Shown here one piece after another: positions 9,281-10,649 of a DNA stretch of 35,867 bases. Position numbers and translations under genes: made by a program. Numbering within the stretch: position 1 is the first letter of the stretch; the number at the start of each line of letters is the position of its first letter. The notes beneath the pieces were generated by a model. It was given only the letters and a program-made list of their open reading frames with translations. It searched no databases and was not told the DNA's origin. This DNA is from a virus (Duplodnaviria > Heunggongvirae > Uroviricota > Caudoviricetes), in IMG/VR virus record IMGVR_UViG_2563366856_000003, positions 1-35,867 of that record; one strand, written 5' to 3'.

Positions 9281-9544
9281 ATGAAAACTGATATCACTGC
9301 CATGTCTGAAAATATAGTTGGATTCTTTGAGAAAACAACACTACGTGACCACATCAAAAAAACATGGCTATACAATGAAAACTGCTTCGTTATTGACTTC
9401 GAATATAAAGGGGTGAAATTTGCATTAGATTTCACAGCCAGCCAGCCAGCCAGCCAGCCAGCCAGCCAGCCAGCCAGCCAGCCAGCCAGCCAGCCAGCCA
9501 GCCAGCCAGCCAGGTGTGAATGTGGATTTTGTACTACGAAATAA
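9281..9544 (+). CDS. Short leader ORF containing the tetranucleotide repeat (encodes SQPA repeats); likely 5' part of a phase-variable glycosyltransferase gene, currently out of frame
   Basis: ATG at 9281 preceded by AGAGG Shine-Dalgarno; reads through (GCCA)19 as (SQPA)n and stops at 9544, in a different frame from the glycosyltransferase ORF. Confidence 0.6.
   Translation: MKTDITAMSENIVGFFEKTTLRDHIKKTWLYNENCFVIDFEYKGVKFALDFTASQPASQPASQPASQPASQPASQPARCECGFCTTK
9437..9512. repeat. Perfect tetranucleotide simple-sequence repeat (GCCA)19
   Basis: 76 bp of uninterrupted GCCA units counted directly; all three forward frames are open through it. Confidence 0.95.
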
Positions 9545-10649
9545 TTGCCCTTATTATACTATAAAAGGCAATACTATAAAAGGCAACACTAAAAAAGAAA
9601 ACATTTCATCTTCTGCTGTTTTAACAACAGCCCTGCATACTTCTCTTCTAAAAATCACAACGGTAATTAATGAAATTAATTCTATTTATCCCTTTGATGT
9701 CTCAGTTGTTATTCCGGTTCACAACCGAGAAACCCTTATTCTCGAATGCATTAAATCTTTAAACAATCAGACTATAGATAAAAATTGTTTTGAAGTTATT
9801 TTCATTGATGACTGTTCCACTGACAGGAGCATTGCCGCCATTGAATATAACATTTCGAGAGAAATAAATTATCGTATTATCCGTAGAGCAGTTGGTTCAG
9901 GGAATGCATCAGCGCCGCGAAATGAGGGAATAAAATCCGCAAAAGGTCGCTATGTGTTTTTCTTAGACTCTGATGATTCCATTCACTCTGACTTACTGTC
10001 CGATGGTATTCAGATGGCTTATAAAAACAATAGTGACATTGTATATTTCAAGCAGGTTTCCTCTACAGGGAGAGGGGTTCCTGTACGCCCATTTAAGGCA
10101 GACACGAATAAAGCAGATATTATAAAAAACCATCTTTTTAGATCATTAAAAATCTTCAAGTTCTTTAAAAGAGAGTTGCTAATCAATAACAACATCTTAT
10201 TTAACCCATCAATTTCAGTCTATGAGGATATGCTTTTTTCTTGCCAGAGCCTAACTGTAGCTAATACGATATCTATACTGGCAAGAAAGGGCTACTACTC
10301 TCTGAATCGCCATGAAGAACCACATCTATCTAAAACATCTTTCTCCATTAAACAAAGAGCCTTGGTATTACAAACAGGTTTGATTTATATCTTATCAAGC
10401 AATAAAAATGAAGCAGAAATAGTAAAAATGTTTAATGCATGGCTGGTTATTTGCGTTGAGCACTTGGCATCCATATTATCCAAAAAAAGTTTAACAACTA
10501 ATGAGAAGTCTCACGTTTTTAACTTGATACATAAATCACTCTTACCATATACAGGGCTTGTAAATGAGTCCCAAATATATCCCGCACAAAGAGAGCTTGT
10601 CAGTTGCTTAATCTGTGGAGATTATTCTTCTTTTTGCGAAAAAATATAA
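9516..10649 (+). CDS. Family 2 (GT-A fold) glycosyltransferase, probable surface-polysaccharide-modifying lysogenic-conversion gene
   Basis: 377-aa ORF with VVIPVHNRE...IFIDDCSTDRS and DSDD (DXD) motifs typical of GT2; the annotated start is a GTG immediately after the repeat with no usable RBS and there is no in-frame ATG upstream of the domain; AT-rich. Confidence 0.8.
   Translation: MNVDFVLRNNCPYYTIKGNTIKGNTKKENISSSAVLTTALHTSLLKITTVINEINSIYPFDVSVVIPVHNRETLILECIKSLNNQTIDKNCFEVIFIDDCSTDRSIAAIEYNISREINYRIIRRAVGSGNASAPRNEGIKSAKGRYVFFLDSDDSIHSDLLSDGIQMAYKNNSDIVYFKQVSSTGRGVPVRPFKADTNKADIIKNHLFRSLKIFKFFKRELLINNNILFNPSISVYEDMLFSCQSLTVANTISILARKGYYSLNRHEEPHLSKTSFSIKQRALVLQTGLIYILSSNKNEAEIVKMFNAWLVICVEHLASILSKKSLTTNEKSHVFNLIHKSLLPYTGLVNESQIYPAQRELVSCLICGDYSSFCEKI
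9558..9602. repeat. 15-bp tandem repeat (about 2.5 copies) in the glycosyltransferase 5' region
   Basis: ACTATAAAAGGCAAT / ACTATAAAAGGCAAC / ACTAAAAAAGAAAAC, encoding TIKGN-TIKGN-TKKEN. Confidence 0.8.

Follow-up and report, generated by a model that had tools for sequence, protein, structure and literature searches.

Repeat-driven contingency genes are considered typical of small-genome pathogens and rare in Escherichia coli, in which neuO is the textbook exception. The neuO gene, carried by the P22-like prophage CUS-3, encodes the O-acetyltransferase of the K1 capsule and has been called a 'mobile contingency locus' (PMC3046976; PMC13001214); a 5′ heptanucleotide repeat of 2–93 copies leaves it ON only at multiples of three (PMC3046976). 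Here we describe a gene of comparable design in a 35,867-nucleotide stretch of tailed-phage DNA (Caudoviricetes; IMG/VR record IMGVR_UViG_2563366856_000003, positions 1 to 35,867; the whole stretch is hereafter the window), in which 19 units of GCCA lie between an ATG-initiated leader and a GT2 glycosyltransferase frame. The original prediction, made from the letters of the window, had read this arrangement as a slipped-strand, phase-variable gene of a prophage. Our analysis confirms the observation, supports the interpretation and refines it in two respects: the design had been thought unusual for Escherichia, for which neuO on CUS-3 with its multiple-of-three rule is a precedent (PMC3046976), and the modified glycan is more likely to be capsule than lipopolysaccharide (LPS). 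We consider it probable that the gene is phase-variable prophage cargo, switched by slippage, and that its product modifies a ribitol-phosphate group 2 capsule.

The closest precedent is thus neuO. Both genes are E. coli prophage cargo, and a P22-type paralogue of the present gene also lies beside a tailspike gene, as described below. Both carry a repeat in the 5′ coding region with a unit that is not a multiple of three, are ON at multiples of three, span a very wide copy range (2–93 in neuO, 7–70 here) and translate the repeat as repeated peptide units; a group 2 capsule is the demonstrated target for neuO and the proposed one here. The two differ in unit (4-nt GCCA here, 7-nt AAGACTC in neuO), in fold (a GT-A glycosyltransferase here, a non-homologous left-handed beta-helix acetyltransferase in neuO) and in the placement of the repeat, which follows 52 codons of a folded domain here and starts 2 nt after the start codon in neuO. 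The present locus also occurs in P2-like phages, and it is known from sequence and DNA length heterogeneity, whereas the function and phase variation of neuO were shown experimentally.

Two further systems are informative. In Haemophilus influenzae, tetranucleotide tracts in the 5′ coding region switch the glycosyltransferase genes lic2A, lgtC and lex2A (PMC2651432; general knowledge), and the predicted likeness to the contingency loci of Haemophilus and Neisseria holds in this sense of a tetranucleotide-switched glycosyltransferase. Unlike the present locus, those genes are chromosomal, belong to small-genome pathogens and are not on phages; their units are CAAT, GACA and GCAA, their families GT25 and GT8, and their target lipooligosaccharide. 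The lgtA, lgtC and lgtD genes of Neisseria are homopolymer-controlled. The Gtr modules (GtrABC), phase-variable in Salmonella (PMC3688519), are prophage-borne like the present gene, sit by the tailspike or attachment site and alter the phage's own receptor glycan, but they form a three-protein, membrane-bound, bactoprenol-dependent periplasmic pathway under a Dam/OxyR epigenetic switch and not a repeat. O-antigen conversion of the Gtr type was rejected for the present gene, which encodes a single soluble enzyme with neither gtrA/gtrC partners nor a membrane segment; the 'GtrB-like' families of PHROG match its generic GT2 core only.

The gene is laid out in the window as follows.

9270–9283 (+): Shine–Dalgarno sequence GAGG (9270–9273), a 7-nt spacer and the leader ATG at 9281
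9281–9436 (+): leader, codons 1–52, first half of the N-terminal alpha/beta domain (two helices, strands 1–3)
9437–9512 (+): (GCCA)19 tract that sets the reading frame; read as an (ASQP)n loop on a beta-hairpin tip when ON
9513–10649 (+): rest of the glycosyltransferase frame, which completes the N-terminal domain and continues with a linker helix, the GT-A domain and a helical domain at the C-terminus
9516–9524 (+): GTG 9516 and GTG 9522, the sole start-like codons before the catalytic domain in the glycosyltransferase frame
9556–9597 (+): TIKGN doubled in the linker by an in-frame tandem duplication of 15 bp, found by Tandem Repeats Finder
9702–10103 (+): GT2 catalytic core (PF00535) with DD.STD, SGN.S.PRN and FLDSDD, the ED motif lying just downstream

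The tract is perfect over 76 bp, as predicted, and begins after codon 52 of the leader; Tandem Repeats Finder places it at 9435–9513 with period 4, 19.8 copies, 100% matches and a score of 158. One other tetranucleotide repeat of at least three units is present in the window, of 3 units, and tetranucleotide repeats never exceeded 3 units in 200 shuffles. The leader open reading frame (ORF; 9281–9544, +, 87 amino acids (aa)) crosses the repeat, and the GT2 ORF (9516–10649, +, 377 aa, GTG start) lies one base out of phase with it. All three repeat frames are stop-free permutations of ASQP, and the glycosyltransferase frame is open from 9429. A minus-strand gene over the repeat, annotated by PGAP in GMF054, was rejected as an artefact of the stop-free repeat. 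Because a unit of four is not divisible by three, every gain or loss of a unit by slippage shifts the frame; in an in-silico series of 14–24 units, a fused protein of 450–462 aa was obtained at 15, 18, 21 and 24 units only. With 19 units the window is OFF, and its product is an 87-aa peptide. The sequence therefore agrees with the prediction on each of these points: OFF at 19 units and ON at 18 or 21, three frames open through the repeat, a GT2 frame offering only GTGs and no in-frame ATG ahead of its catalytic domain, and a leader ATG with a good Shine–Dalgarno sequence (predicted pairing to the anti-Shine–Dalgarno, −7.0 kcal/mol). In ON genomes, PGAP begins the fused coding sequence at this leader ATG. 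Thus, as in known contingency loci, a long perfect repeat with a unit that is not a multiple of three lies in the 5′ coding region, and the number of units decides whether the product is full-length or truncated.

As in such loci, too, the repeat is polymorphic both between and within lineages. The locus was found by megablast in 29 of 5,426 complete E. coli genomes, and units were counted by script in 24 of these carriers (25 alleles with the window). Clean tracts ranged from 7 to 66 units among the 24 genomes (7, 8, 10, 11, 11, 13, 15, 18, 18, 19, 20, 21, 23, 34, 34, 35, 35, 45, 50, 59, 60 and 66), and two tracts, those of DETEC-P881 (~346 nt) and HET6 (134 nt), are long and interrupted. All tracts of 15, 18, 18, 21, 45, 60 and 66 units open an ORF of 449–513 aa from the leader ATG, and with all tracts not divisible by three the ORF ends at 64–132 aa. 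PGAP annotates a single long glycosyltransferase for each clean multiple-of-three tract and for DETEC-P881, the tract of which is uncountable; elsewhere it splits the gene into a 'hypothetical protein' and a 370-aa glycosyltransferase. Variation is also wide within the E. coli B lineage:

REL606: 7 units, OFF
AS19: 10 units, OFF
ATCC 11303: 21 units, ON
B-RalR: 34 units, OFF
B: 35 units, OFF
B-ZidR: 35 units, OFF
B-DolR: 45 units, ON
'C' (CP029371): 59 units, OFF

The drug-resistant strains B-DolR, B-RalR and B-ZidR were derived from the B parent that was sequenced; relative to the 35 units of this parent, the tract gained 10 units in B-DolR (45) and lost one in B-RalR (34), all in a single laboratory study. 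The same gene is ECB_01992 in REL606, for which a 4-nt indel was reported at 19–21% in two control cultures at more than 2,000× coverage, and at 32–34% in eight evolved REL606-derived populations (PMC7750951). The passage on this motif in that report calls the 'seven four-nucleotide repeats' hypermutable, citing Tenaillon et al. 2016 (PMC7750951). Hence the comparison with related genomes, proposed as a check of the prediction, yielded both length variation and the frame rule in 24 genomes, and the repeat number is far from invariant, differing across strains (7–66 units), within E. coli B (7–59 units) and under deep coverage (an indel of ~20% in cultures), in line with a slipped-strand switch.

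The leader and the glycosyltransferase are one gene, which encodes a soluble enzyme of about 450 aa. A protein search with an ON allele recovered many homologues of ~430 aa, of which the repeat-less ones (Leclercia and metagenomic; 34–60% identical) align over the 52-aa leader and share a motif, K.W.Y..C.V.DF.YK.VKFALDF, followed by a short loop and then NVDFVLR. Homologues from Campylobacter and Psychrobacter carry the same small domain at the C-terminus instead, which indicates that it is a real module. When a natural allele with 3 units (P0001) was modelled with AlphaFold (pLDDT 92), ASQP lay at the hairpin tip between strands 45–53 and 58–64 of a five-stranded alpha/beta domain, so the repeat encodes an expandable loop. 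At the repeat site, a related repeat-less allele reads GCCAACCAGACA; this sequence matches (GCCA)3 at all but two positions and could plausibly have given rise to the tract. Among the alleles compared, the TIKGN duplication is limited to the window, CPww7 and CUVM3, and marks the closest relatives of the window.

The assignment to GT2 was upheld by Pfam (PF00535, E = 1.7e-28), with the DXD and catalytic acidic motifs present; no transmembrane segment was detected, the maximum Kyte–Doolittle value of a 19-residue window being 1.51. The best sequence matches in the PDB are Staphylococcus aureus TarS (E = 4.5e-38) and TarP (E = 1.6e-30), and the best Foldseek matches are TarS, TarP and Listeria RmlT (E = 1e-26 to 1e-18, 26–28% identity), with target TM-scores of 0.80–0.86 for TarS and TarP over ~320 aligned columns that include the acceptor-binding region. 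The FLDSDD (DXD) and ED motifs align with those of TarS and TarP and are invariant columns among the homologues. All three of TarS, TarP and RmlT glycosylate poly(ribitol-phosphate) teichoic acid, and tarP is prophage-carried according to its PDB description and, reportedly, to Gerlach et al. 2018. The present enzyme resembles TarP, TarS and RmlT (PDB 6H1J, 5TZE and 8BZ4) in its GT-A domain, acceptor-binding helical region and DXD and ED motifs; it differs in that those are Gram-positive cell-wall enzymes with C-terminal oligomerisation domains and no repeat control, and its small N-terminal domain has no counterpart in them.

The genomic context of the homologues points in the same direction. 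In Campylobacter coli, a homologue lies in the kps capsule locus beside a TagF-like transferase and an IspD/SDR fusion, which we interpret as resembling a CDP-ribitol synthase. E. coli AF16 has a repeat-less homologue (60% identical) in group 2 capsule region 2 beside kpsS and kpsC, a region that also holds CDP-ribitol synthase-type and TagF-like genes. From these relationships, the acceptor is more likely a ribitol-phosphate-containing group 2 capsule than LPS. The AF16 homologue (NZ_OZ547176; L038, 2918–5156) adjoins a 102-nt remnant of a phage tail-fibre-assembly gene, and the sequence upstream of it is similar, by eye only, to ~8960–9010 of the window; the AF16 evidence suggests that the gene has moved between phage and capsule locus.

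In CPww7, the prophage gene is ON and the strain's own capsule locus has no glycosyltransferase of this type, its genes being TagF-like, cytidylyltransferase/SDR, hypothetical and 'phage baseplate protein'. As the AF16-type region 2 is present at the nucleotide level in 2 genomes only, the association test was redone with the CPww7-type region and then with a concatenated query. The CPww7-type region 2 is found in 49 of the 5,426 genomes (17 wild strains and the B lineage), and 18 of the 29 carriers of the prophage gene, spread over six or more separate lineages, have this K locus. This association, though strong, is incomplete and could reflect phage host range as much as substrate.

The gene also sits where phage cargo is expected. 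After host DNA, the window holds a complete-looking P2-like prophage, as evidenced by profile matches and the ORF list, with the following landmarks.

7048–8388 (−): tail sheath gene (PHROG)
10861–13719 (−): tail fibre gene, 952 aa (PHROG; PF12571, PF13884)
34102–35115: integrase gene of the P2-like prophage

The Z/fun hotspot of P2-like phages has been described between the tail-fibre genes and the tail sheath gene FI (10.1101/2024.10.15.618418). In the window, the glycosyltransferase gene occupies the interval between sheath and fibre genes, and the GC content is 31–39% across its region against 52–58% in the flanks; by position and by foreign base composition, it is cargo of this hotspot, as had been proposed from its place beside the tail fibre gene. 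The locus returned no match in a megablast search of 50,697 phage records; copies of the gene are known solely as parts of prophages within bacterial genomes, and no defence-system family of PADLOC matches the glycosyltransferase.

In P22-like prophages, a divergent paralogue is found immediately next to the tailspike gene; strain 'C' (CP029371) has it at tRNA-Arg/intS, another genome near torT. Its body is ~55% and its leader 93% identical to the P2-type allele, its tracts have 70 and 47 GCCA units (L035, 3720–3999; L036, 3812–3999), and the multiple-of-three rule is kept. At least three genomes ('C' CP029371, CUVM3 and CPww7) hold both the P2-type and the P22-type copies. In both phage types, therefore, the gene is prophage-borne and adjacent to a gene for a receptor-binding protein, as in a mobile contingency locus. 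CUVM3 has a related copy without leader or repeat that is immediately preceded by an IS3 element, and CPww7 matches the same leader-less, repeat-less copy by sequence.

The C-terminus of the neighbouring tail fibre is an endosialidase-type intramolecular chaperone (PF13884), and residues 153–431 of the fibre are weakly but significantly similar (E = 4e-7) to the 'baseplate' protein of the capsule locus, which has a five-bladed beta-propeller receptor-binding domain (PF21311); the P22-like tailspike shares a propeller-like region with the P2-type fibre (E = 2e-6). The three genes with this region lie at 10861–13719 (−) of the window, L039 13121–14080 and L035 5171–7816, and these similarities hint at genetic exchange between capsule loci and the receptor-binding proteins of phages.

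In the mechanism that we favour, replication slippage would add or drop GCCA units, and the gene would be ON only at multiples of three. The TarS/TarP-like enzyme would then move a sugar from a nucleotide-sugar onto the ribitol-phosphate polymer of a group 2 capsule, at the cytoplasmic face and before capsule export. Since switching proceeds by slippage, a lysogen population would always be a mixture of capsule-modified and unmodified cells, with altered recognition by antibodies and by capsule-binding phages, the carrier phage included. A more tentative extension, which we regard as possible but hold with low confidence, is that P2-like and P22-like coliphages, two unrelated families, use this GCCA-switched TarP-like enzyme to hedge their bets on the state of the capsule that serves as their own receptor; here the (ASQP)n loop, of ~4 to ~90 residues, would also tune activity or assembly, much like the number of heptads in NeuO, and a stop-NN-GTG junction in one OFF frame would give a third, low-expression state. 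Such a system would be a Gram-negative counterpart of the teichoic acid glycosylation by prophage TarP, with a stochastic rheostat.

Several observations nevertheless weigh against a simple switch acting on a ribitol-phosphate capsule. The gene is ON in 8 of the 25 alleles, about one third, which is the neutral-drift expectation. The interruptions in DETEC-P881 and HET6 may be long-read errors, so that individual assembly counts are uncertain and could be off by a few units. No CDP-ribitol synthase homologue is detectable in 11 of the 29 carriers, and in E. coli B the synthase gene of the capsule locus is interrupted by IS1, in agreement with Andreishcheva and Vann 2006 as cited in PMC7711218, so that the enzyme cannot act on that capsule there. 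GTG 9522 of the glycosyltransferase frame is preceded, at a distance of 5 nt, by AGGTG, which is predicted to pair with the extended anti-Shine–Dalgarno at −6.9 kcal/mol, matching the Shine–Dalgarno of the leader, and in the frame with n mod 3 = 2 the leader ends at a TGA 2 nt before this GTG; together these suggest that some truncated enzyme could be made whatever the phase, and expression could be leaky or three-level. This last point underlies a rival view, in which translation begins at GTG 9522, or by termination and reinitiation, and the repeat decides an N-terminal extension or tunes the level instead of turning the gene on and off. A stop-NN-GTG junction is indeed present in one OFF frame of both alleles (TGA-AT-GTG in the P2-type, TAA-GC-GTG in the P22-type), PGAP starts the gene at GTG 9522 or its equivalent in OFF genomes, and the activity of NeuO is independent of its repeat-encoded extension (PMC3046976). 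According to the model, however, the product would lack two helices and three strands of the five-stranded domain that is kept by all full-length homologues and stays whole even when permuted to the C-terminus; AGGTG is missing from the P22-type allele, and a GTG after a GC-rich repeat is generally weak (general knowledge). We therefore consider this view improbable.

The chance-level ON share would also fit a repeat that is hypermutable within a decaying passenger gene, its length changes being neutral and without adaptive role. In keeping with this, the 4-nt indel was never fixed in evolving REL606 populations and was judged non-adaptive (PMC7750951), the REL606 prophage is defective, E. coli B is without a working capsule locus, and the CUVM3 paralogue is cut by the IS3 element. 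Yet all 24 fetched alleles, at ~97–100% nucleotide identity, hold an intact glycosyltransferase frame of 370–375 aa though they are mostly OFF; growth to 59–70 perfect units is atypical of decay, leader, repeat and frame rule are common to two alleles that have diverged and belong to different phage families, and the repeat is placed precisely in a tolerant loop. Neutral decay is accordingly very unlikely in our judgement. A real switch could instead act on the LPS core, O-antigen or another glycan, which would accommodate the 11 carriers lacking a synthase homologue, the match of the PHROG 'GtrB-like O-antigen conversion' families to the catalytic domain and the LPS core receptor that P2-type phages classically use (general knowledge). 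We think this unlikely, given that gtrA/gtrC partners and a membrane segment were not found, that the three nearest structural families act on poly(ribitol-phosphate), that repeat-less homologues lie within capsule region 2 and that the gene co-occurs strongly with one rare K locus. As for an assembly or sequencing artefact, long simple sequence repeats are error-prone, two tracts are noisy and contigs of many short-read assemblies end exactly at the repeat; but the same tract, with clean units, stands at the same place in 29 independent complete genomes, and the length polymorphism in deep sequencing (PMC7750951) removes this explanation, to which we give almost no weight. Slippage-driven switching of a capsule-modifying prophage enzyme thus remains our preferred reading.

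In earlier work, the function of ECB_01992 has been called unknown (PMC10195153), and its hypermutability is already in the experimental-evolution literature as that of a nuisance site (PMC7750951). In the literature searched, which left subscription journals mostly outside so that an earlier report is possible, no paper was found that presents it as a phase-variable glycosyltransferase or as a contingency locus, or that gives its natural length range, domain structure or link to capsule. If our reading is correct, the gene is a second independent E. coli case, with another enzyme and another repeat than neuO and in two phage families, and contingency loci beside phage receptor-binding genes would be a recurring design. 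It would explain a long-noticed hypermutable site in the most-studied strain of evolution experiments, and would point to a capsule-modifying gene outside kps, which recent capsule typing says remains unfound (PMC13171606). It also predicts that strains of the same K genotype can differ in capsule chemistry, phage sensitivity and antigenicity according to a repeat count that is not resolvable in standard short-read assemblies.

Two non-coding elements flank the gene.

9016–9044 (+): candidate promoter TTCACA-17-TATAAT (11/12 matches), ~237 nt upstream of the leader ATG
10682–10719: strong GC-rich hairpin (CCCCTCACCC-8 nt-GGGTGAGGGG) in the gap where the glycosyltransferase and tail-fibre genes converge

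Since promoter-like sites are no more numerous here than expected from shuffles, the first element is a candidate only. The hairpin has an A-run on one side only, fits the canonical terminator pattern of neither strand and was not flagged in the terminator scan, which leaves it a putative role. Some 900 bp upstream of the leader (8300–9280) are AT-rich and without a convincing gene, with eight terminator-like hairpins against 1.7 expected from shuffles; in the REL606 counterpart, PGAP places a 74-aa hypothetical protein on the minus strand.

The host DNA that opens the window begins with a 453-aa ORF at 1–1362 (full-length match to PHROG 2895), which we take to be yegQ from the K-12 map. The CyaR small RNA was found in this host DNA at 1445–1530 (Rfam, 100.7 bits), so that the prophage adjoins cyaR, a site that in K-12 presumably keeps only ogrK. 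Elsewhere in the prophage, 26596–28939 (−) encodes a reverse transcriptase of 329 aa (PADLOC RT_I-B, E = 4.5e-110) followed by an ATPase-Toprim protein of 450 aa (ATPase-Toprim_I-B, E = 3.4e-179), matches that suggest a retron defence system of type I-B at the old/tin hotspot; no msr/msd RNA was found for it at the Rfam gathering threshold. A 261-aa ORF at 16229–17014 (+), on the strand opposite to the late-gene block, has no PADLOC match; it matches PHROG 2407 (unknown function) over its full length and may be further cargo (a moron).

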